From the NCBI RefSeq assembly GCF_000015225.1, contig NC_008698.1:510001-542000 (forward strand): a stretch of DNA of 32,000 nucleotides, given 5' to 3'. The DNA is from Thermofilum pendens Hrk 5. Its GTDB lineage: Archaea > Thermoproteota > Thermoprotei > Thermofilales > Thermofilaceae. The notes below the pieces were generated by a model. It was not told the origin of the DNA. It worked only from the letters and a program-made list of their open reading frames with translations, and made no database searches. The translations under genes and the position numbers were made by a program. Numbering within the stretch: position 1 is the stretch's first letter; the number at the start of each line of letters is the position of its first letter. Below, one piece after another: positions 3,992 through 29,045 of this stretch.

Positions 3992-5407
3992 CTATTCCTG
4001 CCTTGCCCCCAGCTTTTTAAGCGCTCTTTCTCGCGCCTTCCTTAGGCGTTCCAAGAGGCGCTCCACGCTTGGCCTTGCCGGGTGGTCAAGAGGCATTGCT
4101 TCAAGCTCTTCTTGGACAAACGCGATCAAGGTGTCGTAGACGCGCGGGTATCGGTCAGCATACTTCATTAGCGATTTTTCGCCAGCACGGTAACCCCAAT
4201 ACCTCTTACTCACCTTCACCCTTCTGACTTCTAGACCCTCGCGCCTCGCCCTCTCGGGGAAATCGCGAAGCATCTCCTCGTTATTGCGCGTGATGTATAC
4301 TTGGGCCATAAGGTAGCGGCGGTTCTTAGGGCCTGCGAGCCGCAGGTTCATTTTAACACCGCACACCTCCAGGTAGCGAGGCGCGTAGTGTCGCGGCTTC
4401 ACGGATGCCAGGCTCGCTAAGAATTCTGCCTTCTGGCAACCAGACGCAGCCATGTATTCCAGTAGTTGCGGCACTTTCTCGTAGAGAAGCCTCGCAACCC
4501 TCACCGCACCTTCGGTTCTAACTTGGCGAGATCTTTGACCGACTGCAAATTGTAACAGATGTTTACCCGTGTTGCTTGACCCTGGGTACTCACCATCTGT
4601 AACGTAGAGCAGTGCGAGCTTTAGCGCCCTGACGATGTCGACTTTTCCTTCGTTCGCCGCCTCGATCTCCGCCAAGATAATACCCTGCTTCTCCTCCTTC
4701 CTCAAAGCCCACTCCCTAGGCGCGTCGCGGACGCCGTGTACATAGATAAACCACACCATGCTGACGCGAGTCTCGTTGATTACTATGCTTCTAACGTAGA
4801 CAGTCACCTCCTTCCCCGGCCAGAAACCGGGGAAGGAGGCAACCTGCCAGCTCTGCGCCGTAGCCATATCGACTCTTCCGTGGTCTGCGATGTACGACGC
4901 ATCACCAAGGATCCAACCCGTTTGAGCTGCCACCAGCAATTCAGGCGAAAGCTCCAGGACGTCGGGAAGTCTTAGTCTAGCGATCTTAAGGAGAAGGACG
5001 ACCTCGACACTCCAGTACCCGTTAGGCTTCCTAGACACGTAGATCCGCCATTTCTCTCCTGGAAGCTTAGCCTTCCACCGTGTCTTCCCCGTTCTCTTGA
5101 TCTTGAGTTCGTCTACACGCTTCAGGGCTTCCCTCATCGCTTTCTCCGCCTCTCTGAACGCCTTCTCCTCGCCTTCCCCGAGCCTGCCAACGTATTCAAC
5201 GTAGGCCTCGCCGTATTGCGCATAGTTGCCCCTTATCTCCGCTAGCTCCTGTGCGACCTCTTCATGGGTAGCTTTGAGCCCCCTGTAGCCGCTGGGCGGA
5301 AACAGCGCCCTCCTGAGAAGCTCCTCGATCTTCCTGCGAATAAACCACTCGTCGAACTCTTCAAACCCCTCCCCCGCTCCATTTCCCCTCATGTACCTTT
5401 CAACCAT
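3992..5407 (-). CDS. hypothetical protein (471 aa), orphan-like; charged helical ends flank a core with two LAGLIDADG-like motifs
   Basis: Long uninterrupted ORF with a strong SD (GGAGGGGTGA) 3 nt before the ATG. No family motif is recognised with confidence. 'GWILGDASY' (aa ~165-172) and 'LLYVTDGEY' (aa ~266-274) lie about 100 aa apart and resemble degenerate LAGLIDADG helices. Confidence 0.7.
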   Translation of the reverse strand: MVERYMRGNGAGEGFEEFDEWFIRRKIEELLRRALFPPSGYRGLKATHEEVAQELAEIRGNYAQYGEAYVEYVGRLGEGEEKAFREAEKAMREALKRVDELKIKRTGKTRWKAKLPGEKWRIYVSRKPNGYWSVEVVLLLKIARLRLPDVLELSPELLVAAQTGWILGDASYIADHGRVDMATAQSWQVASFPGFWPGKEVTVYVRSIVINETRVSMVWFIYVHGVRDAPREWALRKEEKQGIILAEIEAANEGKVDIVRALKLALLYVTDGEYPGSSNTGKHLLQFAVGQRSRQVRTEGAVRVARLLYEKVPQLLEYMAASGCQKAEFLASLASVKPRHYAPRYLEVCGVKMNLRLAGPKNRRYLMAQVYITRNNEEMLRDFPERARREGLEVRRVKVSKRYWGYRAGEKSLMKYADRYPRVYDTLIAFVQEELEAMPLDHPARPSVERLLERLRKARERALKKLGARQE

Positions 5408-6397: not shown

Positions 6398-9301
6398 ATG
6401 AAGTTCCCGGAAGTGAATGCTGAGAGAAGGGATTTTCTACGCAAAGTGGAAGAGAAGTGGCAGCGCAGGTGGGAAGAGAGCGGTTTATTCGAAGCGGATC
6501 CAGACCCCTCGCGCCCCAAGTTCTTCGTTACCTTTCCTTACCCCTACATAAACTCCTTCCCACACCTCGGCACAGCGTATACCGTTCTCCGCGTCGATAT
6601 ACTCGCCAGGTTTAAGAGGATGCAGGGCTTCAACGTCCTCTTCCCGCAAGGGTGGCACGCGACGGGAGGGCCCATAGTAGCCGCCGCGCTAAGAGTCAGG
6701 GAGGGCGACGAGAAGCAGATACGCATATTGAAGTCTATCGGAATCCCCGACTCGGAAATCCCGAAGTTCAGGGACCCTGAGTACTGGGTCGAGTTCTTCA
6801 GAAAGGGTTTCAAACAGGACTTTTCGAGGTACGGGCTCTCGATAGACTGGAGGAGGGAGTTTTTCACCACGTACCTAAATCCCCCCTACAGCAAGTTCAT
6901 ACAGTGGCAGTACACAGTCCTGAGAGAGAAGGGTCTGATAACCAGAGGGTCTCACCCGGTTGTGTGGTGCCCGAAAGAGCATAAAGTGGTCGGAGACCAC
7001 GATAGGCCGGACGAGTACGCTGGCATAGGACCGGAAAGAGTCGTGATTATAAAGTTTAAGGGAGAGGACGGCCTCGTCTACCCCTGTCTCACCTATAGAC
7101 CCGAGACGGTTTACGGGGCTGTAAACATCTGGGTGAACCCGGAGTCCAAGTACCTGGTAGCAGAGGTGGACGGTGAGAAATGGGTTATAGGGGAGTACGG
7201 CGCCAGGGAGCTCGCCGACCAGGATCACTCCGTGAAGATAGTGGGAGAGGTAAAGGGCTCCGAGCTCGTGGGTAGGTTTGCGAGGAACCCCGTTACCGGC
7301 TGGAGGATCCCAGTTCTGCCCGCGTACTTCGTCCAGGCGGACGCAGGTACAGGTATAGTGATGTCGGTCCCAGCGCATGCCCCCTACGACTTCGCGGGCC
7401 TGGAGGACCTAAAGAAGGATCCCTACCTCCTAGAGAAGTTTGGCCTGGACCCCGCTATCTTAGACGCTGTTAGACCAGTAAAGCTGATAGACGTCGAGGA
7501 ATACGGCGGGCTACCCGCGGAGGAGGTGGTTAGACGCCTTGGCGTGACGTCGCAGTTTGACCGTGAAAAGCTCGAGGAGGCGACGAAGGAGGTTTACTCG
7601 AAGGAATTTTACAAGGGAGTCCTAAAGCCCGAGGTATTCGGGGAGCGCTGGGGCGGCAGGAAAGTCTTCGAGGTAAAGGAGGACGTCGTGGAGAACCTTG
7701 TGAGCAGAGGCATCGCGCTGAGACACTACACTCTGCCGAGCCCCGTGTACTGCCGTTGCGGGGCTAGGACGCACGTAAAGCTGGTCAAAGACCAGTGGTT
7801 CCTCAGGTACAGCGACCCGGAGTGGAAGAGGAGGGCCCACGAGTGTATTGACAGGATGAGGTTCGTGCCGGAGGAAGTTAGGCAGGAGTTCCACAGGCTC
7901 GTTGACTGGTACGAGGACTGGGCCTGCACGCATGAAAGAGAGCTCGGGACACCGCTCCCGTGGGACGAGAGGTGGGTCCTGGAGTCACTCAGCGATTCGA
8001 CCATATACATGGCCTACTACACGCTGGCGAAGTACTTACAGCACCCGGAGAAGTACGGCATAGACTGGTCCAAGCTGAACAACGAGTTCTTCGACTACGT
8101 CCTCCTGGGAAAGGGGGATCCCGGTAGCGTCGCCGAGAGGACGGGGATTCCCAAGGAGTTGCTCGAAGAGATGAGGAAGGAGTTCCTCTACTGGTACCCT
8201 GTCGATATGAGGGTTTCCGGGAAGGACCTGATCGGGAACCACCTCGTATTCTTCATAATGCACCACGTGGCGATATTCCCGGAAGAACACTGGCCGAGAG
8301 GTATAGGCGTCAACGGCTGGGTCCTGGTTGCCGGGAAGAAGATGTCCAAGTCCGCCGGGAACTTCATACTTCTACGCGAGGCCCTGGAGTACTGGGGCGC
8401 GGATGCTACGCGTTTCGCCGAGGCCTACGCGGGTAACTCGGGGCTCGACGACGGAAACTTTGAGCCCGAGGTTGCGAGTAAGGCTGTAGACCTGCTGTAC
8501 GAGTGGTACGAATTCGCAGTGAACAATTACGGCAAGGGAGATGAAAACAGAAGATTCGTGGACGACTGGTTTGAAAGCGTTCTCTACAGAACCCTGGAAA
8601 AGGTGACTAAAGAGTACGAAGAGCTTAACACGAAAAACGTGCTCGTAGAGGGCTTCTTCAATCTCCAGAACGCGTATAGGTGGTACGTAAAGAGGCGGGG
8701 CGGCACAGCGAATAAAGAGGTGCTTAAGAAGTTCGTAGAGATACAAACCCTCATCCTTGCCCCCATAACACCCCACATAGCCGAGGAGATATGGGAGGCA
8801 ACAGGGCACAAAGAATTCATATCAAGGACGAGCTGGCCCGCAGTCGATAAGAGCAAGATCAAGGACGAGGTGGAAAAAGCCGAGTCCATAGTCGTCAAGC
8901 TATACGAGGATATTCAGGAGGTCCTGAAACTGAAGAAGAGCGGCGTAGAAAGGATAACAATAGTCGCGCCGTCCAAGTGGAAGTACGGCTTCCTCGAAGG
9001 AGTCAAGCGGAGATACTCGACCTACGGGAAGCTTTCTCAGGCTATAAGCGAGACAATAAAGGAAGTCGAGCCCAGCCTTAAACCCGCCGCTGGACAGCTA
9101 GCATCGCTTATCCAGAAGAACCCAGAGGTCCTAGACCTTCTAGTAAGCCCCGAAGCGGAGCAGAAAGCACTCTCCGACGCGCTCGAATTCCTTAAAGACT
9201 CTCTAGGAGTCCCCGTAGAACTTGTAGCGGAGGAAGAGCTAAGGGAAAACCCGAGAGCCAGAACAACCCTCCCAGGTAGACCCTCGATCATTCTTTCGTA
9301 G
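6398..9301 (+). CDS. leuS: leucyl-tRNA synthetase
   Basis: Class I motifs 'FPHLGTAYT' (HIGH-like) and 'KMSKS', plus a CP1 editing-domain-sized insertion. Length is typical of archaeal LeuRS. The start is set to the ATG at 6398 ('MKFPEVNAERRDF...'); the track ORF begins 12 codons earlier at a TTG. Confidence 0.95.
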   Translation: MKFPEVNAERRDFLRKVEEKWQRRWEESGLFEADPDPSRPKFFVTFPYPYINSFPHLGTAYTVLRVDILARFKRMQGFNVLFPQGWHATGGPIVAAALRVREGDEKQIRILKSIGIPDSEIPKFRDPEYWVEFFRKGFKQDFSRYGLSIDWRREFFTTYLNPPYSKFIQWQYTVLREKGLITRGSHPVVWCPKEHKVVGDHDRPDEYAGIGPERVVIIKFKGEDGLVYPCLTYRPETVYGAVNIWVNPESKYLVAEVDGEKWVIGEYGARELADQDHSVKIVGEVKGSELVGRFARNPVTGWRIPVLPAYFVQADAGTGIVMSVPAHAPYDFAGLEDLKKDPYLLEKFGLDPAILDAVRPVKLIDVEEYGGLPAEEVVRRLGVTSQFDREKLEEATKEVYSKEFYKGVLKPEVFGERWGGRKVFEVKEDVVENLVSRGIALRHYTLPSPVYCRCGARTHVKLVKDQWFLRYSDPEWKRRAHECIDRMRFVPEEVRQEFHRLVDWYEDWACTHERELGTPLPWDERWVLESLSDSTIYMAYYTLAKYLQHPEKYGIDWSKLNNEFFDYVLLGKGDPGSVAERTGIPKELLEEMRKEFLYWYPVDMRVSGKDLIGNHLVFFIMHHVAIFPEEHWPRGIGVNGWVLVAGKKMSKSAGNFILLREALEYWGADATRFAEAYAGNSGLDDGNFEPEVASKAVDLLYEWYEFAVNNYGKGDENRRFVDDWFESVLYRTLEKVTKEYEELNTKNVLVEGFFNLQNAYRWYVKRRGGTANKEVLKKFVEIQTLILAPITPHIAEEIWEATGHKEFISRTSWPAVDKSKIKDEVEKAESIVVKLYEDIQEVLKLKKSGVERITIVAPSKWKYGFLEGVKRRYSTYGKLSQAISETIKEVEPSLKPAAGQLASLIQKNPEVLDLLVSPEAEQKALSDALEFLKDSLGVPVELVAEEELRENPRARTTLPGRPSIILS

Positions 9302-9541: not shown

Positions 9542-9787
9542 GTGATCAACAAGAACGACGTAGAGAAGAAGGCCAGGAGCCTTTTCAGGGACGCTCAGAT
9601 CGAGGTGAAAATGGAGGGTAAGGGTATCAAGCTCGCAATCGAAGGTATAGGAGAGGACGTGGGAGAGCTCTTTACAAAGATAGGCGACCTTGTCTCCGGC
9701 ATCGCGAAGGCTTCGGGAGCCAAGGACACCGACGTCATAGTCAGCATTCAGGGCTCCGCTTACGGGATAGAAATCGAGATATACTAG
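9542..9787 (+). CDS. small hypothetical protein (81 aa)
   Basis: GTG-initiated ORF about 35-45 nt downstream of ATAAGTTTTTAGG. The composition is Gly/Ile/Glu-rich and no family is recognised. Confidence 0.4.
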   Translation: MINKNDVEKKARSLFRDAQIEVKMEGKGIKLAIEGIGEDVGELFTKIGDLVSGIAKASGAKDTDVIVSIQGSAYGIEIEIY

Positions 9788-9791
9788 CTAA

Positions 9792-18565: not shown

Positions 18566-18662
18566 TGGTGCGGCCGCCGGGATTTGAACCCGGGTTCTCC
18601 GCGCCTACACAGGGCTCTGCGGCGTGGAAGGCCGCCATCCTACCAGACTAGACTACGGCCGC
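18566..18662 (-). tRNA. tRNA-Gly(UCC), 97 nt, with a ~20-nt intron in the variable loop (about 45/46) and encoded CCA
   Basis: Hand-folded cloverleaf with acceptor GCGGCCG/CGGCCGC-A-CCA, D-arm GUCU-AGUCUGGUA-GGAU and anticodon arm GCGGC-CUUCCAC-GCCGC. Twenty-five nt lie where 5 are expected before the T-arm CCGGG-UUCAAAU-CCCGG. A TATA-like box, TTTAAAA, sits ~30-36 nt upstream (18692-18698). Confidence 0.9.
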
Positions 18663-19091
18663 CGGAGCCAGAAAACTCAGTACGATCTTCCTTTTAAACT
18701 TATTCTTCTCTTATGCTTGATCGCGCACCCGCAAGCAACCAACCCGAGTGCTCAAAGCTGCAGCGCCCCCTCCTCCCTTCCACGCCTCGTCATCGTCGTC
18801 CCGCGGAGACACAATTAACGGTCACCGGGCAGCGCGCGAGGAAACAAGCCAGCGGGAAAAAAAATGCTTAGCGGTACCTTTACTGAGAGCCTTCAACGTG
18901 GAAAAACGGGGACGCGCGGTGGCCAGGGTGCACGCGCGTGATGAAGAAAAAGGGTTCAGACGCGCGTTTTCAGCCCCAACCCCTAGCCTCCTCGCGTGAT
19001 TGCGCGCTCTAAACCAGGGACTCGCGCGCGAGCTATCTTTCACTATGTGTAAGATTTTTATTTGGAAAACTACCTACATGATCTTGTGAGC

Positions 19092-19337
19092 ATGCACGAA
19101 CAATCTCAAAACATCGCCTATGTACTCATAAACTGCGAGATCGGGAAAGAGAAAGACGTGCTGGAACAGATAAGGAATATTCCAGGAGTTATCGAGGCAC
19201 ACTTGCTCTACGGAGTTTACGATATAATAGTCAAGGTGACTGGAAAAGACAACGTGGAAATCAGGGAAATGATACTGACGAAAATAAGGCGGATACCAGG
19301 AGTAAAGCGCACACTTACGATGCCCGTAGTCGAATAA
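19092..19337 (+). CDS. stand-alone RAM-domain protein (Lrp/AsnC ligand-binding domain only)
   Basis: About 81 aa with the beta-alpha-beta-beta-alpha-beta pattern 'AYVLINCE...VLEQIRNIPGVIEAHLLYGVYDIIVKV...IRRIPGVKRT'. The ATG at 19092 lies ~28-40 nt downstream of AAGATTTTTATTTGG. The track ORF starts 10 codons earlier at a TTG. Confidence 0.75.
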   Translation: MHEQSQNIAYVLINCEIGKEKDVLEQIRNIPGVIEAHLLYGVYDIIVKVTGKDNVEIREMILTKIRRIPGVKRTLTMPVVE

Positions 19338-19496
19338 ACACCTAAGTTACCGGGGGAGTACTAGGGGAAAATTACTTAAAAGTTACATGTTCCCAGTACT
19401 GCGCGGGTAAACATATAAACGATAACTATTTATACCAGCGACCCCCAGCGCTGCGCGTCTCTAACACCCTTAAAGCCTCCCAGCACGGTTTATCAC

Positions 19497-20348
19497 ATGC
19501 TCAAATGTCCAAACTGTAACTCTACGGTAGTGCTCGACGGGCGAACATACGAATACGTGTGTCCCAGCTGTGGTCTTGTAATTGGGTATAAACATGAACA
19601 TTCCGTACAGAAGGAAAGTTTACAAAGTAAATCTAGTAACAAAAAGGTGTTATATTCTGTGGAAGATTCCCGCGCGCTCTACGCGAGAAAAATGCTCGCA
19701 AAGCTTGGCCTCAACACATTAGCAGATGATGTTGTCAAAGAGTACCTATATGCATCACGTAAAGTCGGAGGTGGGGTTGCAGTCTTCGCCGTCGTCCTTT
19801 ACTATACGTTAAGGCGTAACAATCCGAGTGTAACACTTCGGCAAGTAGTAGAAATGATTCGGGAATCGGGATCTAGGCTTACGGTGTCACGAGCCTTGAA
19901 GATGATGCATCTTCTACACGCGCGCGGCGCGCTGTGCGTTGATGACTGGAAAACGCTCGTAGAAGAGATTTCGTTCCGCCTTGGAAATTACTACAACCTA
20001 AGCCCCCTCAAACTCCGAATGTTACTTGAGGAGTATCTGTCAAGGGTGCGTCCGCACGTGGGGGGCAGGAGTAGAAGGAACATCACTGCTGCTCTCGCTT
20101 TTATCATACTGAGAAGCCTTGGTTTTAACGTGAGATATGATGTTGTTGCGGACTTGTGTAGAGTCCCGGAAAGTAGCTTGAGGAAAAACGTGGACCTGCT
20201 CGAGCTAATCCTTCTCGAAGTGTTTGACGAGAAGGTTTTCTGCTACACTTCGGAAAAAGCTCGTACAGGGGATGACCTCGAGGTAGCCTCTAAAGTTCCC
20301 GTAGATAACCCACGAGTCGTTGAGGGGGCAGTACAGCAGGGCAACTAG
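19497..20348 (+). CDS. divergent TFB/TFIIB-like protein (Zn ribbon plus two degenerate cyclin-like repeats)
   Basis: N-terminal C4 ribbon 'CPNC-x14-CPSCGLVI'. Two repeat-like helical blocks are present ('AVFAVVLYYTLRRNNPSVTLRQVVEMI' and 'RNITAALAFIILRSLGFNVRYDVVADLCRVPESSLRKN'). The canonical B-reader/linker sequence is not recognisable. The 5' part is A/T-rich, and the last 144 nt overlap the convergent DUF359 gene. Confidence 0.6.
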   Translation: MLKCPNCNSTVVLDGRTYEYVCPSCGLVIGYKHEHSVQKESLQSKSSNKKVLYSVEDSRALYARKMLAKLGLNTLADDVVKEYLYASRKVGGGVAVFAVVLYYTLRRNNPSVTLRQVVEMIRESGSRLTVSRALKMMHLLHARGALCVDDWKTLVEEISFRLGNYYNLSPLKLRMLLEEYLSRVRPHVGGRSRRNITAALAFIILRSLGFNVRYDVVADLCRVPESSLRKNVDLLELILLEVFDEKVFCYTSEKARTGDDLEVASKVPVDNPRVVEGAVQQGN

Positions 20349-20750
20349 TGACAGCAGGTCCTCCTCTCCCTCGACGTAAACCACGATTTTTTTACCTCTG
20401 CCAATAGCGCTAGTCAACAGGTTTCTCAGGAGCTCGTAGCACTCCCTGGAGATTTCTCCCGGCCTGTTCTTGCAGGTGAACGCCTCGGCCTTCCCGGGGA
20501 GGTCCTCGACTTTCAGGTTTCTCCTCGTGTGCCCGTCCACGATGAAGAAGTCTCCCAACCCCCTTTCGCGGAACGACTTGGACACGACGTCCCCGACTAG
20601 TATCAGCGTTTTCCCGAACCTCGATGACTGCACGAGTCTCCAAGCCTTTTCCACCGAGAGTGGAGGCTCGTCGAAGAAGAGGTAGCCCCACGAGTATGAA
20701 AGCTCGCGCCTAGCGGCGGGGCTACTCGACATGCGAAGCCGGCTCCACAT
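20205..20750 (-). CDS. DUF359 / GTP-dependent dephospho-CoA kinase-like protein
   Basis: Family-like blocks 'ILVGDVVS', 'IVDGHTRR', 'NRPGEIS', 'VEGEEDLL' and 'VIYGNFRGYLEV'. The track ORF extends upstream across a tRNA gene, which is spurious. The start is taken as the ATG at 20750, with an alternative at 20732. Confidence 0.8.
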   Translation of the reverse strand: MWSRLRMSSSPAARRELSYSWGYLFFDEPPLSVEKAWRLVQSSRFGKTLILVGDVVSKSFRERGLGDFFIVDGHTRRNLKVEDLPGKAEAFTCKNRPGEISRECYELLRNLLTSAIGRGKKIVVYVEGEEDLLSLVALLYCPLNDSWVIYGNFRGYLEVIPCTSFFRSVAENLLVKHFEKD

Positions 20751-20805
20751 ACACCGTTCCCCAGCGCTGGTTGAGCATTTATCTTCCACGTGAAGCGTGA
20801 GCAAG

Positions 20806-20904
20806 TGGCGGGCCCGCCGGGATTTGAACCCGGGGCTTCCGCTACGCCCGCACGGGCTCTGCGGCTCCGGAGGCCGCCACGCTTCCTGGCTACGCCACGG
20901 GCCC
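20806..20904 (-). tRNA. tRNA-Arg(CCG), 99 nt, with a ~22-nt variable-loop intron and encoded CCA
   Basis: Acceptor GGGCCCG/CGGGCCC-G-CCA and anticodon arm GCGGC-CUCCGGA-GCCGC. Twenty-seven nt lie between the anticodon stem and the T-stem. A TATA-like box, ATTTATATTT, sits ~33-42 nt upstream (20937-20946). Confidence 0.9.
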
Positions 20905-21020
20905 CATGACGGAGTTACTGTCCAGTAAATATAAATCCTGCGTGCGCTTATCTGCGACCGCGTGCGAATGATAAAAAATTTTTTAAATGAGTACATGCAG
21001 TAATAACTTGGTGGTTCAGG

Positions 21021-21491
21021 ATGTCGGAACGTGCAAGTGAAATCAAGTTAGACCACATAGATAAGAAGATACTGGAAATATTACAGGATAACGCGAAGAC
21101 TCCGTATGCTCAGATAGCGAGCCAGCTGGGTATATCGGAGGCGACAGTGCACCTCAGGATAAAGAAGCTGGTATCCATGGGCGTTATAAAGAGGTTCCAG
21201 GCGATAATAGACCCGGAGAAGGTTGGGCGAAAGGTTACCGCCATAATAGGGGTGATCACCGTACCCCAGAAGTACTCCCAAGTGCTTAAGGAGCTCGAAA
21301 AAATGCCGGAAATAGTAGAGATATACGATGTCGCAGGCGAGTATTCGACCATCCTCAAGGTTAGAGTGAAAAACAAGGAAGACCTCGCCTCCCTACTTGA
21401 CGAGATAGGAAAAATAGACGGCGTCGAGAGCACAAAGACCATGTACGTGCTGAGAGTAATAAAGGAAGATACGAGAATCAAGGTCGACTAG
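21021..21491 (+). CDS. Lrp/AsnC-family transcriptional regulator (HTH + RAM domain)
   Basis: 'LDHIDKKILEILQDNAKTPYAQIASQLGISEATVHLRIKKL' is an HTH_AsnC-type motif, followed by a C-terminal RAM domain. Length is 156 aa. Confidence 0.9.
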   Translation: MSERASEIKLDHIDKKILEILQDNAKTPYAQIASQLGISEATVHLRIKKLVSMGVIKRFQAIIDPEKVGRKVTAIIGVITVPQKYSQVLKELEKMPEIVEIYDVAGEYSTILKVRVKNKEDLASLLDEIGKIDGVESTKTMYVLRVIKEDTRIKVD

Positions 21492-21502
21492 CCCCCGGAA
21501 AG

Positions 21503-21645
21503 TGGTGGGGCCGCCGGGATTTGAACCCGGGATTCGGCGCCCGGGGGTTTATCCCGGGCTCCACCTGGGCTCTTGTCTTCGAGATCCCGAATCCTGCGAG
21601 TTTTTGCCTCGTGCCAGGCATCCTACCAGGCTGGACTACGGCCCC
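21503..21645 (-). tRNA. tRNA, probably Pro(CGG), 143 nt, with three predicted introns (about 22 + 16 + 28 nt) and encoded CCA
   Basis: Acceptor GGGGCCG/CGGCCCC-A-CCA, D-arm GUCC-AGCCUGGUA-GGAU and T-arm CCGGG-UUCAAAU-CCCGG. The anticodon stem CCUGG...CCAGG encloses 45 nt. A BHB-like fold (CCUG:CAGG helix, bulges GC|A and AU|U) removes 22 nt after C32 and gives the loop C-UCGGGA. A further ~16 nt lie before CCAGG, and a 28-nt insert sits in the variable loop. Total length is 77 + 66 = 143 nt. The isotype call is tentative. Confidence 0.8.
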
Positions 21646-22054
21646 AAAGCAAGCACAAATAAGCCACGGGGATTTAAAAACTTTCGTATATCGTGCGCGT
21701 TTGGAGGTGTACGCATGTTGTGGTGGAGAAGAAAAAAGGAAGGTTTTAGACGTATGTTTTGAGCTCCAACTCTGCTCTCATCTTCTTCAAAGCACTTTCA
21801 CCCATTTCATCGCCGCTCTCTTCGCCTCCCCCTCGGCGTTGCTTTTTGCATGCGCCGCGCTCAGCGCGAAGAGCAATCTCCTCGGCACCTGGGGGCGTCG
21901 CGCGCCGCTACTGCATCGCCGAGAACATCAACCCTCATCCATACCACTGTTCCTCCTCACCTCGGTCTCAACGTACTCCTCGCCTACGTACATCGCCGAG
22001 GTGCCCGGCCTCCTCTTTACGTGCACCAAAAAGGGCTTGCAAAGGACTGTGCTG

Positions 22055-22873
22055 TTATTGTTTTTGCTCCACTGCTTTCTTTATAGCCTCGAAGAGGGTT
22101 GACGAAGCCTTTAACGCCATGTCTCGAGCTCGGAGAACCTCGTCTGGCCTGAAGGATCCCTCTCCGCTTTTCTGTATTGCGCAGATCTCGCCTCTCTCCG
22201 TGATGCCGAAGGTTATCTTTGCGTCGGCTGTGAGTTCCTCTTCGAGAGTTGGGTCTACTACTAGGTACTCGCCTATCTTGGCAACGGTTACATAGACGAC
22301 CAGCGTGTTGATGGGTAGGGGGTCTTTCTCGTCGAGAACAGCGATCTTATTTTCCTGGACGGAGGTTCGGGGGAGCTTTGTGTCTAGTAGGGCGAGTAGC
22401 GCTGCAAGTCCTGCTGCATCTACAAGGTTTCCATCGTGGTCGAGGGGGTATATGTCTATGTAGAGAGTCCAGCACTTCGCGGAGGGTATTATGGAGAGCT
22501 TTGCCAAGTCTACGACTTTCGCACTCCTAAACCCTCTGTCCACGACTCTCGCCAGTTCAATGTCCTCCTCTCCGGGGGGTCCCGGTTCGAAAAACGGGGA
22601 AGCCACGGGAGACAGCTCGGCGTTGACTATTTGTACTCCCTCGTTCGGTGCGTCGGGAAACGGGGTCCCTATAGCCAGCTTAACTCCGGCAATCACCTGG
22701 GTTGAGCCGAGGAATACTCTTGCCGAGCCGTCAGCTTTGCCTATAATACCCTTCTCGAGCCTTATCTCCCTGTACTGGTCCGCTTTCCTACCGTCGAGCC
22801 TTTCGCCCTTAGCAAGGGAGGCCAGTATAACCTCCTTTTTCACGGAAGGAACGAATGTTCGAGCCTCAGCCAC
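22055..22873 (-). CDS. rrp42: exosome complex subunit Rrp42 (RNase PH-like, non-catalytic)
   Basis: RNase PH-fold protein of 272 aa directly downstream of rrp41. Its GTG start overlaps the rrp41 stop by 1 nt. Confidence 0.9.
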   Translation of the reverse strand: MAEARTFVPSVKKEVILASLAKGERLDGRKADQYREIRLEKGIIGKADGSARVFLGSTQVIAGVKLAIGTPFPDAPNEGVQIVNAELSPVASPFFEPGPPGEEDIELARVVDRGFRSAKVVDLAKLSIIPSAKCWTLYIDIYPLDHDGNLVDAAGLAALLALLDTKLPRTSVQENKIAVLDEKDPLPINTLVVYVTVAKIGEYLVVDPTLEEELTADAKITFGITERGEICAIQKSGEGSFRPDEVLRARDMALKASSTLFEAIKKAVEQKQ

Positions 22874-23610
22874 TATTCCTCCACCTCTTTCACAGACTCG
22901 TACTTGGTCTTAAGCGCGCGCACCTGTTCAGCATAAATCTTTTGGAAGGCTTTCTGCGCCAGCCTCAACGCTTCCTCGATCTCTTGCGGGGTGAACACTC
23001 CGTCCGCCTGCAGGAGCGTTATTTCCCCGCGCTGAGGCATCATAGCTATCGGCATATCTCCATCTCCGTACTGGTCTTCAATACCGTTGATGTCGAGGAC
23101 GAGGACGTTTCCTATTTTTCCAACTGCTATTGCCGCTACGAGGTCCCGCATTGCTATACCGGCGTCAGCGAGAGCCACAGATCCCGCTATTATACTCGCA
23201 GTCCTTGTTCCACCGTCTGCCTCGAGTATGTGGATGTAGACCTCGATGGATGTTCTCGGGTATTCGTTGAGGAAGACTGCCGGAGCAAGAGCCTCCCTAA
23301 TTACTTTCGATAGCTCTATCTCCCTCCTCGAAGGCTGAGGACTTTTCCTTTCGGCCACGGAGAACGGGAGCATGCTGTACCTGCACTTAAGTATCGCTCT
23401 GTCAGGAAGGGCTTCGTGCCTGGGCATAGGCTCCCTGGGTCCATACACCGCGGCTAGGACCTTGTTATTCCCCAGCTCCACGTAAGCGGATCCATCGGCG
23501 TTCTTTAGCACGCCTGCCTCTACGCGCAAGGGTCGCATTTCATCAGGTAGGCGTCCATCTACTCGTCTACCGTTTTCGTCTATAAGCCGTTCCGGTGCTC
23601 CTCGCTTCAT
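22873..23610 (-). CDS. rrp41: exosome complex exonuclease Rrp41 (RNase PH)
   Basis: 'DGRxxDExRP' N-terminus, with 'GTRTASI' and 'DGxxT' RNase PH blocks. The ATG overlaps the rrp4 stop (ATGA). Confidence 0.94.
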
Positions 23611-24320
23611 GATCTCAACCTCTCTTCTATAAACTGCTTTATCCTATCGGTTAAACCTGTTGTATGCGCCTCCGCCTCTATCTTCCTAACAGCGAGAACG
23701 GCTATTTCGACCCTCTGGGGATCGTCGCCCACAACGACTATCCTTCCGTTCTGTCCCACTATCAGCTTCACGCCGAGGAGGTCTTCGATCATGGAGACCA
23801 TGGAGCCCCTCCTACCTATAACCCTGGGTACTTTTTGAGGCGGAATTTCTACGAGAGTTCCCCGGGGTATTTTCCCGAGCCTTGACTCTTTAATCGTGAG
23901 AACAGGGTCTTTGCTGAGATCGAAGGACACTATCTTCGCCAGTATCAGGTCGCCCACGTCGAGTATCCTGGAAAGCTCGTTTCTCGAGATGGTGACTGGT
24001 CTGCTGGTAACCTCCGAGACTGGTAGGACAGCCACATACGGAGAGTTTATGTCGACCTCCCAGCTAGTGAACCCTATATCGACAACTTTCCCCACGACGA
24101 TGTGTCCCTCTACCGGGAAGTATTTCCCCTTAAGGGGAATGACCTTAACGACACGGTTCTCCTCGTCCACCGTAACTACTCCCAGCACCTTCGAGTAGTA
24201 CTTCCTGCCCACCCTGAAGACTTGCCCCTCTACCCTAAACCTGCCCTGTTCGCCGACAAATTCTCCTGGCGCAACAATCTGCCTATCCTTAACGTGTATG
24301 GTCACAGCACCACCTCTCAA
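23607..24320 (-). CDS. rrp4: exosome RNA-binding subunit Rrp4 (S1 + KH domains)
   Basis: An S1-like block '[20 protein letters not shown]' is followed by a KH motif '[14 protein letters not shown]'. The TTG start overlaps the SBDS stop (TTGA). Confidence 0.9.
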
Positions 24321-25024
24321 ACGGGCTCCATACGTATGAGCTTCACGTCCCCCGAACCTTTAGTCAGAGACGCTACTTTCTCAACTATGCTGGACTGTAG
24401 CCCTGCTGGGACTTCTATCTCCAAGTCCAGCGAACCGTCGCTTCTGTAGTTTTCCCTTAGGACCTTCCCCATCTTGCTCACAGCATGGTAAGCTTTACCC
24501 ACGTAGGCGGCCGGTATGTAGACAGCCATTATAGCCTTCATTATCTTCATTGGGAGGGTCATTCTAAGCGCTTTAATCACGTCAGGTACCTGTAACTCTG
24601 CCGGCTTGAAGGGGTCGATGCTCACCCTTGCTTCTTCGAGGGCTAGCTCGATACGCTTAGCCGGGATGGGGGCGTTTGTCCGCGGGTCTACAGCGTTCCT
24701 GGAGATAAGCTCTATTATTTGTCTCTTCTTCTGCTCTATGAGCTCTCTTCTCTGCTCCGTTGTGAGAAGCAACTCTCCTTGCTTGAGAATTATCTCTGCA
24801 ACAGAGTAAATGTTGTCGGTGCCGAACACTTTCTTCAGCTCCGACTCGGAGGCCTTTAACCCCCTATTAGCGTCGTAGTAAATGAATTCTCCCTCCATTA
24901 TTTCCCTCACGTTCAGTTTCTCTCCGTTCTTGTAGAGCCAAGCCTTTTCAACGTCCACTATTATCTCGTACCTCTTGCCGCCCCGCTCTAGCCTAGCTAT
25001 GCTTAGCCTCCTCTTACCCGACAT
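24317..25024 (-). CDS. sdo1: SBDS/Sdo1-family ribosome maturation protein
   Basis: 235 aa with N-terminus '[15 protein letters not shown]' and '[22 protein letters not shown]' typical of SBDS. It occupies the conserved position between psmA and rrp4. Confidence 0.9.
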
Positions 25025-25093
25025 GATGCCTCACAAACATAGAACTAACCTAACTTATTTAAAAACAAATGTTTCGCGCGCGCTACGTCACGT

Positions 25094-25810
25094 TCAACGT
25101 AGTTTCTCGAAAAGTTTCGCCAGCTCCTCGGTAGAGAAGATTTTGAACTCCTTCGTGTAGACATCGATCCGGGCAAGCTCGATGTTTTCCGGTGTGAAGC
25201 CGTCTTCCATTGCCTCCTTAAGCCCTCTCAAGGCTAGTAGCGTAGCTTCTTCGATTTTTATGTCGTCGTGGTACTCCTTCACAAACAAGTCTAGGGCTTT
25301 CTGGGCACCCGCACCTATCGCGCGGGCCTTGCACCTCAGGTATGTACCGCCGGGATCCGTTTGGATGAGGTGGGGTCCCTTTCGGTCAACGCCTGCGAAA
25401 AGGAAAGCTACCCCGAAGGGGCGCACACCGCCGTGCTGCGTGTACACCTGTTTTATGTCGCATATCCTTTTCACAAGCAACTCTATCGGTATCGGCTCAC
25501 CGTACACAAGCCTGTGGGACTGCGCGTATATCCTCGCCTGGTCTATCAAGACCCGGGCATCACCGAAGAGCCCGGCAAACGCGACGCCGACATGGCTATC
25601 TATCTTCTTTATCTTCTCGGTGCCCTCTACTAGAGGCGAAGCGCTCCTCTTTTCAACAGCCAGCACAACGCCGTCAACAGCCTTAACGCCGAGCGCGGTC
25701 ATACCGCGCTTTACAGCCTCAAAGGCGTACTCAACCTGGTACAGCCTGCCCTCAGGACTGAATATCGTGATGGCTCTATCGTAACCAGCCATAGGAGCAG
25801 CCGGAAACAT
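25094..25810 (-). CDS. psmA: proteasome alpha subunit
   Basis: 'YDRAITIFSPEGRLYQVEYA' is the alpha-subunit N-terminal signature. Length is 238 aa. The TATA box TTTTATAA (25842-25849) sits ~31 nt upstream of the ATG. Confidence 0.95.
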   Translation of the reverse strand: MFPAAPMAGYDRAITIFSPEGRLYQVEYAFEAVKRGMTALGVKAVDGVVLAVEKRSASPLVEGTEKIKKIDSHVGVAFAGLFGDARVLIDQARIYAQSHRLVYGEPIPIELLVKRICDIKQVYTQHGGVRPFGVAFLFAGVDRKGPHLIQTDPGGTYLRCKARAIGAGAQKALDLFVKEYHDDIKIEEATLLALRGLKEAMEDGFTPENIELARIDVYTKEFKIFSTEELAKLFEKLR

Positions 25811-25841
25811 ACTGCACCCCCGAAGTTGGAATCTTGGGCAG

Positions 25842-25849
25842 TTATAAAA
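25842..25849 (-). promoter_or_regulatory. TATA box of psmA
   Basis: The minus-strand sense reads GCGCGCG-AAGC-TTTTATAA, with the ATG 31 nt downstream, as expected for a leaderless transcript. Confidence 0.6.
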
Positions 25850-26192
25850 GCTTCGCGCGCAACGGCGATACTCCTGGTCTTTGCATAGTTCGGGCTTTTC
25901 GTAGCAAAGCTCCGGGTGGCACTCCCCGGGGTTTCTAGCGCAGTACTCGTCTCAGTAGACCTCCTCCCCTCCCTCCTTGGCTTCCTTCAGGTCGAAGTCG
26001 GGCTTCATTACCAAGTTGTCCCAGTCGTAGTAGTTCTATGTACTCGACCTCGTACAGCGCGCGTCGAGAAACTGGGGGTCAGGGCGTTAAAAGTAGGAAA
26101 CCACCGGGAAGGGTGTCTAGCTTTCTCCTTCCTTTTGCATGCTTGAGCCCAGTCGAAAAGTTTAAGAGAACAGAAGTAGTAGAGGTAGAGGA

Positions 26193-26296
26193 GGCCTCGG
26201 TGGTGTAGCCTGGGAACACGTCGGCCTGTGGAGCCGAAGAGGCGCCGTGAGCGGCGCGCGCGGAAACCCCGGGTTCAAATCCCGGCCGAGGCCCCA
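26193..26296 (+). tRNA. tRNA-His(GUG), 104 nt, with encoded G-1, a ~26-nt variable-loop intron and encoded CCA
   Basis: G-1 pairs with C73 (G-GCCUCGG...CCGAGGC-C-CCA). The anticodon arm is UCGGC-CUGUGGA-GCCGA. Thirty-one nt lie between the anticodon stem and the T-stem. A TATA-like box, AAAGTTTAAG, sits ~30 nt upstream. Confidence 0.9.
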
Positions 26297-26446
26297 AATC
26301 CTTGTTGTCTTCTCTCCTAAGATTTTACAGGGGTTGCACTGGAAGCCAGTCTCCGTTCTCTTTCGCGCACCAGTCAAGCGCGGCACGGGCGCCAGTAAGC
26401 TCGCGTAAAGTAAAGAATAAAAGTGGAGTAGACGTTATCTTTTTAG

Positions 26447-26563
26447 GCCGGGGTGGCCGAGCGGACCAAGGCGGTGGACACTTGGAGCCACACTCGAGAT
26501 CTGTCCGCGAGGCATCCACTGCCCGTTAAGGGTGCCCGGGTTCGAATCCCGGCCCCGGCGCCA
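26447..26563 (+). tRNA. tRNA-Ser(CGA), 117 nt, with two predicted anticodon-loop introns (14 nt near 32/33, 15 nt at 37/38) and encoded CCA
   Basis: Class II body nearly identical to the tRNA-Ser at 28958 in acceptor, D-arm, long variable arm and T-arm. The stem GUGGA/UCCAC encloses 36 nt. After removing ACUUGGAGCCACAC, a canonical BHB forms (CUCG:CGAG helix, bulges AG|A and GC|A), giving the loop CUCGAGA. Confidence 0.85.
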
Positions 26564-26622
26564 TTCTCTGCCTTCAAGTGTTTCGTGAAAAGGTCTTAAA
26601 ACCCCGAGTATCTATTGTGTGC

Positions 26623-27390
26623 GTGGTCAGGAAGAGCATCATCGTAATGCTAGGCCCGGCTGGCTCCGGGAAGACTTCTCTCGTAGCGTCGCTAGGTAAG
26701 TGGATAGAGAAGAAGCAACTAGTACCCGTGCTGTACGTGAACCTGGATCCCGGAGCCCCCTACACGCCATACGCCGCGGAGGTAAACATCCGGGAATACG
26801 TTAAGGTTGAAGACGTGATGGCTAGGGAGAAGCTGGGGCCGAACGGGGCGTTAATAAGGAGTATTGAGCTCGCCAGAGAGTACCTGCCGGAAATCGTGGA
26901 ACGGATAGGTAGATCTCCCAAGCCTTACGTCCTCGTCGATACGCCGGGGCAGATGGAGCTCTTTCTTTTCAGAGACCTGGGTGTAGAATTCGTAGAGGCT
27001 ATGCGGAGAGTGGGCTACATTATAGGTGTACTCATCTTTGACCACCTTCTCGCCGCGCGCCCCCAGGACGTGGTCTCATTGAGGCTGTTGGCGACAATCG
27101 TTCAGCTCAGGCTGGGAGTCGACGTGATACCGGTGATCAACAAGAGCGACGTGTCCTCCGAGACCAGGGAAAGGCTTAGCCGGGCACTGTCGGACTCTTC
27201 CTCTCTCCTGGAGGAGCTAAAGTCGGAGAGAGGACTGCTCGGGGAGATGTCCGAGAAAGTGGTTGGCGTGCTGGACGAGTACAGGTTCGCGACAAGGGTG
27301 CCTCTTGTCAGTGCGTTAACGTGGGAAGGGCTTGAAGAGCTCTACGACATGCTCCACGAGATCTTCTGCGCGTGCGGAGACCTAACGTAG
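26623..27390 (+). CDS. GPN-loop GTPase
   Basis: P-loop 'GPAGSGKTS', 'NLDPGA', the GPN motif 'LGPNGAL' and 'DTPGQMELF'. The start is set to the GTG at 26623, ~25-30 nt downstream of TCTTAAAAC. The track ORF start at 26578 lies only 15 nt after the tRNA-Ser. Confidence 0.85.
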   Translation: MVRKSIIVMLGPAGSGKTSLVASLGKWIEKKQLVPVLYVNLDPGAPYTPYAAEVNIREYVKVEDVMAREKLGPNGALIRSIELAREYLPEIVERIGRSPKPYVLVDTPGQMELFLFRDLGVEFVEAMRRVGYIIGVLIFDHLLAARPQDVVSLRLLATIVQLRLGVDVIPVINKSDVSSETRERLSRALSDSSSLLEELKSERGLLGEMSEKVVGVLDEYRFATRVPLVSALTWEGLEELYDMLHEIFCACGDLT

Positions 27391-27402
27391 GGCTTCGCGC
27401 CG

Positions 27403-28593
27403 CTACCCGCCTATAACCGCGCTTATCACGATATCAGAGAGCAAGCCTTCCTCGACGTTCTTTAGGGGCACTCCGAGAGCCACAACTTTCGTCCTACCGT
27501 ACCTGCCGAGGCTTATAACCCTGGCATTTATTATGCCAGCCATGTCGAGCTCATTGAGTATGTCCGTTATCCTCCTGCTGGTAACGGGCTCTATGCCCAC
27601 CTTCGTCACGAGCTCCTTGTACTTGTCGTAGATAAGCCCCGTGGTTATAGTCTTCGCGCCCCCCTCCTTCGTTAAAAGGTAGATAGACGCGAGAACAAGC
27701 TTGACGTGGAGGGGCATAGTCTTTATGACGTCCACGGTGAGGTTCTTTTCTATTTCGTTCCTAGCCTTGTCCACGTGGGCCTCTGTGACCTCGGAGGCGC
27801 GCTCGCGCTCCGCTATGTCCGCAGCCTTCAAAAGAATGTCGAGGGCCAGCCTGCAGTCACCGTTCTGCCTCGCGGCTATCGCCGCAACCTTCTTTATCAC
27901 GGCGTCGCTGACTACGCCCTCGTGGAAAGCCTCCTTAGCCCTCCTGCGGAGGATGTCTTCCAGCTGTATCGCGTTGTAAGGCGGGAACACCAGTTCCTCC
28001 TCCCCTAGGCTACTCTTCACCCTAGCATCGAGGAACTCCGTGAACTTCAAATCGTTCGTTATCCCAATGACGCTGACCCTCGTGTTCGTCAACTGCTCGT
28101 TTACGCGGGTAAGGTAGTATAGGACGTCGTCGCCGTTCCTCTTCACGAGGTTATCCACCTCGTCCAACACTACTATCAGTATCCTGTGCTTCCTGTCGAG
28201 AGCCTGAGTTATTCTCTTCATAACTTCTCCGAGCGCGAGCCCCGTGAAGGGTATCTTCACGCCCAAGAACTTGCCGAGCTCTGCGAGCACCCTGTAGCTA
28301 GTGTTGTTTTGCCGGCAATTTATGTAGACGTACTCTATGCGCCCTCCTCCCTTCTCGGCAAGCCTCCTTAAGACGTACTTCGTAACGGCAGTCTTACCGG
28401 TACCCGTTAACCCGTAGATAAACACGTTGGACGGCCTGCTACCACTCAAAGCGGGAGCCAGCGTTAAGGCAAGGCGCTTTATCTGCTCGTCTCTGTGCGG
28501 GAGATCCTCAGGGACATAGTCGGGTAAAAGCTTCTCTCGGGCTTTATAGATCCTTGAGCCAAGGTACTGGTCAAATATCTCCTCTAGCGACAT
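27403..28593 (-). CDS. cdc6: Orc1/Cdc6 replication initiator
   Basis: 'LPHRDEQIKRL', Walker A 'GLTGTGKTAV', Walker B 'VVLDEVD' and a C-terminal winged-helix region. The start is set to the ATG at 28593 ('MSLEEIFDQYL'). Confidence 0.95.
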   Translation of the reverse strand: MSLEEIFDQYLGSRIYKAREKLLPDYVPEDLPHRDEQIKRLALTLAPALSGSRPSNVFIYGLTGTGKTAVTKYVLRRLAEKGGGRIEYVYINCRQNNTSYRVLAELGKFLGVKIPFTGLALGEVMKRITQALDRKHRILIVVLDEVDNLVKRNGDDVLYYLTRVNEQLTNTRVSVIGITNDLKFTEFLDARVKSSLGEEELVFPPYNAIQLEDILRRRAKEAFHEGVVSDAVIKKVAAIAARQNGDCRLALDILLKAADIAERERASEVTEAHVDKARNEIEKNLTVDVIKTMPLHVKLVLASIYLLTKEGGAKTITTGLIYDKYKELVTKVGIEPVTSRRITDILNELDMAGIINARVISLGRYGRTKVVALGVPLKNVEEGLLSDIVISAVIGG

Positions 28594-28744
28594 GCAGCAT
28601 CCATAGGATCCAGTAGAAGTAGAGGTTACATTAAGCAATACTTTAGAAGAGACTAAAACCCGAACGTGCTACCACAGTCTTACAGATGTACAAAGCACAC
28701 GTAGAATCATACCAACTGCTAGCCGCCACGCAGAGAACAGGGGA

Positions 28745-28865
28745 TGGTGCCCCGGCCGGGATTTGAACCCGGGATATCCGCGCCCGCCGTCGCACGGGCT
28801 CCTCGGCTCGAAAGGCCGATATCCTCTCAACCCCCTGCAGGTTGACCGGGCTAGACGACCGGGGC
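28745..28865 (-). tRNA. tRNA-Glu(UUC), 121 nt, with two predicted introns (~19 nt in the D-loop, ~25 nt in the variable loop) and encoded CCA
   Basis: Acceptor GCCCCGG/CCGGGGC-A-CCA. The D-stem GUCU/GGAU encloses 28 nt, including the hairpin CAACC-UGCAGGGG-GGUUG. The anticodon arm is UCGGC-CUUUCGA-GCCGA. Thirty nt lie before the T-stem. Total length is 77 + 44 = 121 nt. Confidence 0.85.
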
Positions 28866-28957
28866 TACGCACCTAAAACGTCGAAGAACCAGTTATATGT
28901 TTTTCTCTTAGCACGCGAAATTTTAATATCAAGGGGTTTGTTATAGTCTAACGCGCG

Positions 28958-29045
28958 GCCGGGGTGGCCGAGCGGACCAAGGCGATGGCCTGGAGAGCCA
29001 TTACCCGTTAAGGGTGCCCGGGTTCGAATCCCGGCCCCGGCGCCA
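28958..29045 (+). tRNA. tRNA-Ser(GGA), 88 nt, intron-less, with encoded CCA
   Basis: Acceptor GCCGGGG/CCCCGGC-G-CCA, anticodon arm AUGGC-CUGGAGA-GCCAU, long variable arm UACCCGUUAAGGGUG and T-arm CCGGG-UUCGAAU-CCCGG. The TATA-like box TTTTAATATC sits at 28921-28930. Confidence 0.93.

Follow-up and report, generated by a model that had tools for sequence, protein, structure and literature searches.

Five tRNA genes in a 32,000-nucleotide (nt) stretch of contig NC_008698.1 (positions 510,001 to 542,000, forward strand; this whole stretch is the window, and coordinates are counted from its first letter) carry additional sequence where the variable loop should be, which raises the questions of whether these inserts are introns and whether they have a common source. 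An initial annotation had proposed one related family of introns at the same variable-loop site of tRNA-Gly, tRNA-Arg, tRNA-Pro, tRNA-His, and tRNA-Glu. As an observation this is confirmed; its interpretation is partly supported. The best explanation is very probably that a single family of relaxed bulge-helix-bulge (BHB) introns occupies the variable loops of five Thermofilaceae tRNA genes.

The inserts were said to place 25–33 nt where 5 are expected, and the distances between the anticodon stem and the T stem are indeed 25 nt in Gly, 27 in Arg, 30 in Glu, 31 in His, and 33 in Pro. For Gly, Arg, and His, alignment to the Rfam tRNA model leaves 22–27 nt unmatched at 45/46. In silico removal of 20 (Gly), 22 (Arg), 25 (Glu), 26 (His), and 28 nt (Pro), along with the further introns in Pro and Glu, gave five products that ARAGORN called as intronless cloverleaf tRNAs of 77–79 nt with the expected anticodons. 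All five genes are thus interrupted tRNAs whose cloverleaf is restored upon removal of these segments:

18597..18616, minus strand: Gly intron, 20 nt, 45/46, AGCCCUGUGUAGGCGCGGAG; mature loop AGAAC
20837..20858, minus strand: Arg intron, 22 nt, 45/46, AGCCCGUGCGGGCGUAGCGGAA; mature loop AGGCC
21533..21560, minus strand: Pro intron, 28 nt in the 46/47 model, AGCCCGGGAUAAACCCCCGGGCGCCGAA; junction ambiguous by 1–2 nt
26240..26265, plus strand: His intron, 26 nt, 45/46, AGGCGCCGUGAGCGGCGCGCGCGGAA; predicted mature loop AGACC
28776..28800, minus strand: Glu intron, 25 nt, 45/46, AGCCCGUGCGACGGCGGGCGCGGAU; mature loop GGAUC

The predicted mature loops recur in relatives. That of Gly is identical to the loop of an intronless Gly(CCC) gene (locus L067), and that of Glu is identical to the loop in L088 and L090, which are devoid of the variable-loop intron; the Arg loop matches AGGUC of L067, L069, and L070 (intronless or differently interrupted) at four of five positions.

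To define the splice motif we used the BHB geometry, in which an exon strand pairs with the intron 3′ end in a 4-bp helix flanked by two 3-nt bulges that contain the splice sites (PMC4090602). This geometry recovered the canonical intron of tRNA-Ser(CGA) (CUCG:CGAG) and the strict motif of the Pro 32/33 intron as positive controls. An unrestricted scan across whole genes was too noisy to be used by itself because G+C-rich tRNAs yield many spurious matches, and the search was limited to junction pairs that leave 4–5 variable-loop nt. In the register that leaves 5 nt, the central helix (H) of every insert has three or four of its four pairs (the slash within a bulge marks the splice site):

Gly motif: CCGC:GCGG, 4/4 pairs; bulges AG/A and AG/A; inner helix GCC:GGC; junction 45/46
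Arg motif: CCGC:GCGG, 4/4 pairs; 3x3 internal loop, AGA opposite GUA; inner helix GCCC:GGGC; junction 45/46
Glu motif: CCGA:GCGG, 3/4 pairs, A43.G mismatch; bulges GG/A and AU/A; inner helix of 6 bp; junction 45/46
His motif: CCGA:GCGG, 3/4 pairs; bulges AG/A and AA/A; inner helix of 6 bp, GCGCCG:CGGCGC, offset by unpaired nt; junction 45/46
Pro motif: AGGU:GCCG, 3/4 pairs; bulges GG/A and AA/U; inner helix of 7 bp; junction 46/47

An outer helix was found in none of the five introns, so none adopts the strict hBHBh′ form and all five are predicted to be of the relaxed HBh′ type, a type known from non-canonical introns of Crenarchaeota that the (alpha-beta)2 endonuclease cleaves (PMC4090602). 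The Gly insert had been described as a textbook BHB; the CCGC:GCGG helix, the AG/A bulges, and the GCC:GGC hairpin are all present, but the outer helix is missing and the motif competes with the anticodon stem. The central helix takes its exon strand from the 3′ side of the anticodon stem, and motif and cloverleaf are therefore mutually exclusive. In constrained folds the BHB conformer and the cloverleaf lie within 2–3.5 kcal/mol of each other. Local folding of Arg, Glu, and His gives the H helix plus inner hairpin as the structure of minimum energy; for Gly, this structure lies within 0.8 kcal of the minimum.

Shuffled inserts reached the observed H pairing jointly for all five genes, in the register that leaves 5 nt, in 0.15% of shuffle sets, and the Gly combination of four H pairs with an inner helix (h′) of at least three pairs in 0.24% of shuffles. 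Across 19 introns at 45/46 or 46/47 the sequence of the inner helix varies and its pairing is almost always kept; in orthologous Pro introns, for example, GCCCGGG:CCCGGGC corresponds to GGGCGCGU:ACGCGCCC. Such covariation is the pattern to be expected if the inner helix is a structural element of the splice motif. The motifs support the view that all five genes contain archaeal introns of the BHB type, with the junction at 45/46 in four of them.

A plausible pathway follows from these structures. In the precursor, the last six intron nt would comprise a 4-nt strand (GCGG, or GCCG in Pro) and two bulge nt; the strand would pair with nt 40–43 (41–44 in Pro) of the anticodon-stem 3′ strand to give the 4-bp central helix. 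The 5′ splice site would lie in a 3-nt bulge made of positions 44 and 45 and the first intron nt, the 3′ splice site in a bulge made of the last two intron nt and position 46, and the G+C-rich inner hairpin of the intron would stack on the central helix. This motif could form only with the anticodon stem opened, the intron strand mimicking positions 27–30. By analogy with established systems, the crenarchaeal (alpha-beta)2 splicing endonuclease would cut both bulges and the RtcB ligase would join the exons, leaving a 5-nt variable loop. Cleavage and ligation are predicted steps, with indirect support from the orthologues and from the literature on the Thermofilum pendens tRNA-Gly intron.

The splice sites and the shared position first proposed hold for Gly, Arg, Glu, and His, all at 45/46, but not for Pro. 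There, the proposed junction UG/G...GA/A, at 45/46, was rejected as the best model because it allows only one of four central pairs. A junction at 46/47 (UGG/A...GAA/UC), with the AGGU:GCCG helix and the 7-bp inner helix, is favored by the family alignment, the relaxed motif, and comparison with orthologues, and most likely is the true one. The intronless Pro orthologue in L067 has the loop UGGAC, to be compared with UGGUC predicted by the 46/47 junction, UGAUC by 45/46, and UGGAAUC by a strict BHB; the orthologous intron in L091 has the same ends as the 46/47 model. The Pro T stem reads CCGGG in the window and CGGGG in L067. The strict BHB (GGUG:CGCC, bulges GA/G and GA/A) is 1.5 kcal less stable and was placed second because it leaves a 7-nt variable loop. 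The claim that excision leaves exactly 5 nt in every case is correct insofar as a register with 5 nt exists in all five genes, but the strict Pro BHB would leave 7. At 46/47, Pro is offset from the others by one nt, which is caused by an extra G of the host. Both Pro registers, AGGU:GCCG and GGUG:CGCC, 1–2 nt apart, are kept in L091 (about 8530–8570, plus strand), where the inner hairpin has a sequence entirely different from that in the window.

Which of these introns are shared with relatives? We located the relatives' loci by pattern scans of a genome collection and of metagenomes and through contigs that encode homologues of two window proteins. The patterns that yielded most of the relatives' 45/46 introns required GCGGA. 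The distribution is patchy:

Gly variable-loop intron: present in the window, Infirmifilum KC_020, and the ERZ lineage (L012, L009, L028, L057, L065); absent from Gly(CCC) of L067
Glu variable-loop intron: present in the window and L091; absent from L088, L090, L044, and L004
Pro variable-loop intron: present in the window and L091; absent from L067
Arg variable-loop intron: present in the window; absent from L067, L069, and L070
His variable-loop intron: present in the window; absent from the syntenic L012 (Infirmifilum)

Presence and absence thus differ between orthologous tRNAs of related species. The Glu intron of L091 has the same ends as that of the window, and among the relatives' loci compared, Arg- and His-type variable-loop introns have so far been seen in the window only. 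The gene for tRNA-Arg(CCG), which lies beside an Lrp gene, has four layouts in four Thermofilaceae genomes: a variable-loop intron only in the window, one canonical-type intron in L067, none in L069, and two anticodon-arm introns in L070 (the relatives' loci at about 9690–9790, minus strand).

This pattern could in principle reflect vertical inheritance from an ancestor with many variable-loop introns, followed by differential loss and by gene conversion among resident copies, without transposition. Several observations are in line with such a history: the Gly intron is common to the window, Infirmifilum KC_020, and the ERZ metagenome lineage; the Glu and Pro introns occur in L091 and are absent from L067, L088, and L090, so that loss or repeated gain is needed; and the Gly and Asp introns of the ERZ lineage are 100% identical, which suggests homogenisation. 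Yet Arg(CCG) has no variable-loop intron in the three other genomes examined, His has none in the one syntenic orthologue examined, and the ancestor would have had introns at very many positions. We consider loss alone a possible account, if an unlikely one. The preferred reading is instead that the various Thermofilaceae lineages gained and lost copies of one family in various tRNAs, either through some form of transposition or through gene conversion among tRNA genes with common flanking exon sequence; its oldest visible member would be the variable-loop intron of tRNA-Gly. The patchy distribution and the likeness of paralogues fit the published rapid intron turnover and copying between tRNAs. 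A gain by transposition as known from Thermoproteales, which had been suggested for the window, is the same published phenomenon but is not equally shown for all five introns, given that the Gly intron is common to three other Thermofilaceae genomes and the Glu and Pro introns to one, and that those of Arg and His are confined to the window so far.

Two further observations concern the relatives. Long stretches of 37–41 nt between the anticodon stem and the T stem are present in tRNA-Met of Infirmifilum and in tRNA-Ile of Infirmifilum and the ERZ lineage (L028, 4456–4588, plus strand; L026, 595–719, minus strand; L056, about 4700–4830, minus strand). No clear 45/46 BHB was found in them; they may be introns at neighboring positions (43/44 or 44/45) or nested arrangements, and these genes were excluded from the intron comparisons. 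A scan of viral contigs for the family pattern returned only coding sequence and ordinary intronless tRNAs and thus gave no sign of a viral carrier.

That the five introns are related was judged from intron bodies, which we defined as the intron minus its first nt and its last six, the ends dictated by the host. Against mononucleotide shuffles the five bodies have a sum-of-pairs z of 5.8 and against hairpin-preserving shuffles a z of 4.6, with none of 5000 shuffles reaching the observed value in either case. The stated likeness of the inserts holds at the level of the set; it is weak for His and Pro, and single pairs are only weakly significant, with His versus Gly, Arg, and Pro not significant. 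Pairwise identity is 0.73–0.81 among neighbors within Gly, Arg, Glu, and His, 0.62 for Gly–His, and 0.54–0.64 for Pro. All that Pro has in common with the family is its start, AGCCCG, and its end, GGGCGC. His, the weakest member, resembles mainly Glu. AGCCC opens four of the five introns, and the first 10 nt are common to Arg and Glu. Infirmifilum KC_020 also has introns of the AGCC...GGCGCGGA type, in tRNA-Asp, tRNA-Gln, and each of the three Gly isoacceptors. In the ERZ1669248/9 lineage (L056, L057, L065), one and the same 18-mer interrupts Gly(GCC), Gly(CCC), and Asp(GUC), which suggests that it was recently copied from one tRNA gene to another or spread by gene conversion. Likeness between paralogues in the window (Glu–Arg 19/25, Glu–His 21/26) is at least as high as likeness to the orthologues in L091 (Glu 19/30, Pro 19/28).

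Could independent inserts have converged instead, being alike through common flanks (CCGN-RG ... CCGGGUUCAAAUCCCGG), the GCGG strand with its two-nt bulge, and a heat-stable hairpin? The host dictates GCGGA(N), the best-conserved part, which also appears in tRNA-Lys introns that are unrelated to the family (Acidilobaceae, Ignicoccus, and others); any two G+C-rich 20–30-mers are already 50–65% globally identical; and for His and Pro the similarity to most other members is not significant. However, the excess over hairpin-preserving shuffles persists once the host-dictated ends are taken away, the AGCC(C) start is shared by four of the five window introns and all Gly, Asp, and Gln members of two other genomes, and Arg and Glu have 10 consecutive nt in common. 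The Lys introns at the same site begin with GUCCC, AGACGG, or AGGCGG, and since their bodies are unrelated, the site itself does not dictate the body sequence. One Thermofilaceae metagenome-assembled genome (MAG) has a different intron type (AGACGGCC...), common to its Gly and Lys. Convergence of all five is thus quite improbable. These comparisons support a single sequence-related family, in which the site would set the 3′ end of the intron and the body would mark a family at the level of the lineage.

The idea that the inserts stay unspliced, as long variable arms of class-II-like tRNAs, is extremely improbable: the inner hairpins resemble variable arms in size, and Kjems et al. speculated, as cited in PMC3978253, that long variable arms descend from such introns, but close orthologues function without the insert and with the same 5-nt loop, the constraint on the insert ends is that of BHB strands and bulges rather than that of a variable arm, and the homologous T. 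pendens tRNA-Gly element is called an intron in the accounts given by PMC4810241 and PMC3978253.

Several points weigh against the reading of one spliced family. Splicing was deduced from DNA sequence and predicted structure. The rules for the central and inner helices are fully satisfied by Gly alone, the only intron with all four central pairs and an abutting inner helix; Arg has an internal loop in place of a one-sided bulge, the inner helix of His is irregular, and in Glu and His an A.G mismatch adjoins the bulge. For single genes, shuffles reach three or four central pairs in 10–50% of cases, the inserts being G+C-rich. The strict Pro BHB that predicts a 7-nt loop is conserved in L091, and the junction is not fixed. 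Pairwise similarity is weak for His and Pro. Because the patterns demanded GCGGA, most of the relatives' introns cannot test covariation of that strand, and presence and absence, taken without placement on a species tree, show difference and not direction, be it gain or loss.

One argument made initially for common descent is weak. Retention of GCGG opposite A43 had been taken to favor descent over coevolution with the host, but the same A43.G pair is present in the orthologous Glu intron of L091 (Thermofilum) and hence is a tolerated, long-lived state rather than a sign of recent arrival. The Pro strand, GCCG, fits its own host strand AGGU and thus does covary.

The group peculiarity seen here has been documented from 1989 to 2010, and the five introns are of an already known kind. 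An 18-nt variable-loop intron in tRNA-Gly(CCC) of T. pendens was described by Kjems et al. (1989, J Biol Chem 264:17834), as cited in PMC4810241 and PMC3978253. Archaeal family, tRNA identity, and location in the variable loop are the same for the Gly intron of the window, which has 20 nt instead of 18 and lies in the UCC isoacceptor, a comparison by description rather than by sequence; in the window, four more tRNAs contain members of the family. A metagenomic Thermofilaceae lineage has in Gly(CCC) and Gly(GCC) an 18-nt version, AGCCCUGUAGGCGCGGAG, set apart from the window Gly intron only by a 2-nt indel. Position 45/46 is a listed non-canonical intron site (PMC4090602). According to reviews (PMC4033280, PMC4090602, PMC4390854), genes interrupted by as many as three introns and similar introns across different tRNAs of seven Thermoproteales species were described by Sugahara (2008) and Fujishima (2010, Mol Biol Evol 27:2233). 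Compared through these summaries, the translocatable groups of Thermoproteales do not differ in kind from the window: introns that resemble each other, in the window at the level of the set, occupy one non-canonical position in tRNAs that differ in identity, a gene can have as many as three introns, and turnover among related species is rapid. The common position in the window is 45/46 in Gly, Arg, Glu, and His, with Pro offset by one nt.

The closest crenarchaeal parallel in structure is provided by tRNA-Lys introns at 45/46, which we saw in Acidilobaceae, Ignicoccus pacificus, Infirmifilum lucidum, and Thermofilum MAGs; PMC4810241 mentions two tRNA-Lys with an intron in the variable arm. The Lys introns that we saw share the insertion point, a CCGU:GCGG helix, the ...GCGGAA/G end, and the HBh′ layout, but their bodies are unrelated (GUCCC...GGGA, AGGCGG...) and their host is Lys only. 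Canonical 37/38 introns, exemplified in the window by Ser(CGA) and Pro, follow the same splice logic of a 4-bp helix between exon and intron 3′ end plus 3-nt bulges (PMC4090602). In these, the exon strand is formed by anticodon-loop positions 32–35 and the anticodon stem serves as the outer helix, whereas in the variable-loop introns the anticodon stem itself is the exon strand and there is no outer helix.

The five genes are part of a cluster of seven tRNA genes within 18566–29045 detected by a T-arm scan, with Pro, Glu, and Ser(CGA) parsed by hand:

18566..18662, minus strand: tRNA-Gly(UCC) gene, encoded CCA; ARAGORN, Rfam tRNA 60.4 bits, spliced form a 77-nt cloverleaf
20806..20904, minus strand: tRNA-Arg(CCG) gene, encoded CCA; ARAGORN, Rfam, spliced form
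21503..21645, minus strand: tRNA-Pro(CGG) gene, three introns, encoded CCA; hand parse, spliced form a 77-nt tRNA-Pro
26194..26296, plus strand: tRNA-His(GUG) gene, encoded CCA; Rfam 53.5 bits, spliced form
26447–26563, plus strand: tRNA-Ser(CGA) gene; hand parse
28745..28865, minus strand: tRNA-Glu(UUC) gene, D-loop and variable-loop introns, encoded CCA; hand parse, spliced form 79 nt
28958–29045, plus strand: tRNA-Ser(GGA) gene; ARAGORN

On the window, ARAGORN calls Gly, Arg, and Ser(GGA), and the Rfam model adds His. Neither tool calls the genes for Pro (143 nt) and Glu (121 nt) because of the further introns that these contain; the sole trace of tRNA-Pro on unspliced DNA is a sub-threshold transfer-messenger RNA (tmRNA) match. 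A 3′ CCA is encoded by all seven genes. It is absent from the Gly, His, and Asp genes of Infirmifilum KC_020 that were examined (L009, L012, L026, L028) and encoded in the Thermofilum-like MAGs L067, L091, L021, and L044; at least some T. pendens tRNA genes are known to encode CCA (PMC3218864).

Additional introns reside in three of these genes. In tRNA-Pro (minus strand), introns at 32/33 (21591–21612) and 37/38 (21570–21585) precede that of the variable loop (21533–21560); the first has a strict hBHBh′ motif, and both are conserved in L067, L068, and L091. The class II tRNA-Ser(CGA) has introns at 26480–26493 and 26499–26513 (plus strand), a non-canonical 32/33 intron with a GUGG:CCAC helix beside the canonical 37/38 intron. 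L091 also has an intron at this 32/33 place, and Infirmifilum lucidum has the canonical one only. According to a review (PMC4390854), no translocatable intron is known in class II tRNAs. The D-loop intron of tRNA-Glu comprises 17 nt (28826–28842, minus strand) at about position 20/21, with a CGGU:GUUG helix. Glu introns occupy the same place in five relatives (L044, L004, L088, L090, L091), and the D-loop intron therefore appears old and stable, unlike the variable-loop intron.

The genes around the tRNAs are housekeeping genes, and no mobile-element genes were found among the window genes identified. Pfam assigns neighbors as eIF2-gamma, ArgRS, a LeuRS-like class I synthetase, pyruvate:ferredoxin oxidoreductase, and a DUF359 protein. 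Pfam tables of the relatives' contigs and named homologues add proteasome alpha, SBDS, three exosome subunits, and an Lrp-family regulator, and also place a GPN-type GTPase, Cdc6, and TrpRS near the window tRNA genes; reverse gyrase, nicotinamide mononucleotide (NMN) adenylyltransferase, and TFB were assigned by reading the window translations. The open reading frames (ORFs) 20205–20996 (minus strand) and 21521–22295 (plus strand), which run across tRNA-Arg and tRNA-Pro, are artefacts of the ORF listing; the true minus-strand gene is that of the DUF359 protein, with a start probably near 20720.

The closest protein homologues carry the names Thermofilum or Infirmifilum. Gene order is kept for ~8 kb, from reverse gyrase to the proteasome subunit, between the window and Infirmifilum sp. 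KC_020 (L012), with 44–93% amino-acid identity between syntenic proteins (29% for TFB), and the window thus belongs to Thermofilaceae. This family is now placed in the order Thermofilales and was earlier part of Thermoproteales, so the host falls into Thermoproteales in the broad sense, as do the hosts of the translocatable intron group.

A bolder view would be that the AGCC...GGCGCGGA intron is a still-active mobile element that copied itself from an old Gly member, first to Glu and Pro and recently to Arg and His, targeting any tRNA with the exon context CCGN-RG / NNC-CCGGG, by reverse splicing at a BHB-competent site or by short-tract gene conversion guided by the T arm. We regard this as speculative and rather doubtful. 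Junction repeats resembling a target-site duplication (AG/A ... AG/A) are seen in Gly only among the five introns and are not general. If the view were true, Thermofilaceae genomes that differ by single insertions would be a natural system for studying the movement of archaeal tRNA introns.

The window is a clean local example of three documented features: non-canonical introns at 45/46, multi-intron genes, and related introns across tRNAs. It adds small points, namely, the four Arg layouts in four genomes, the covariation of the inner hairpin, and a likeness of paralogues at least equal to that of orthologues. These leave the general picture unchanged, but could help to choose genome pairs for a study of intron gain and loss in archaea.

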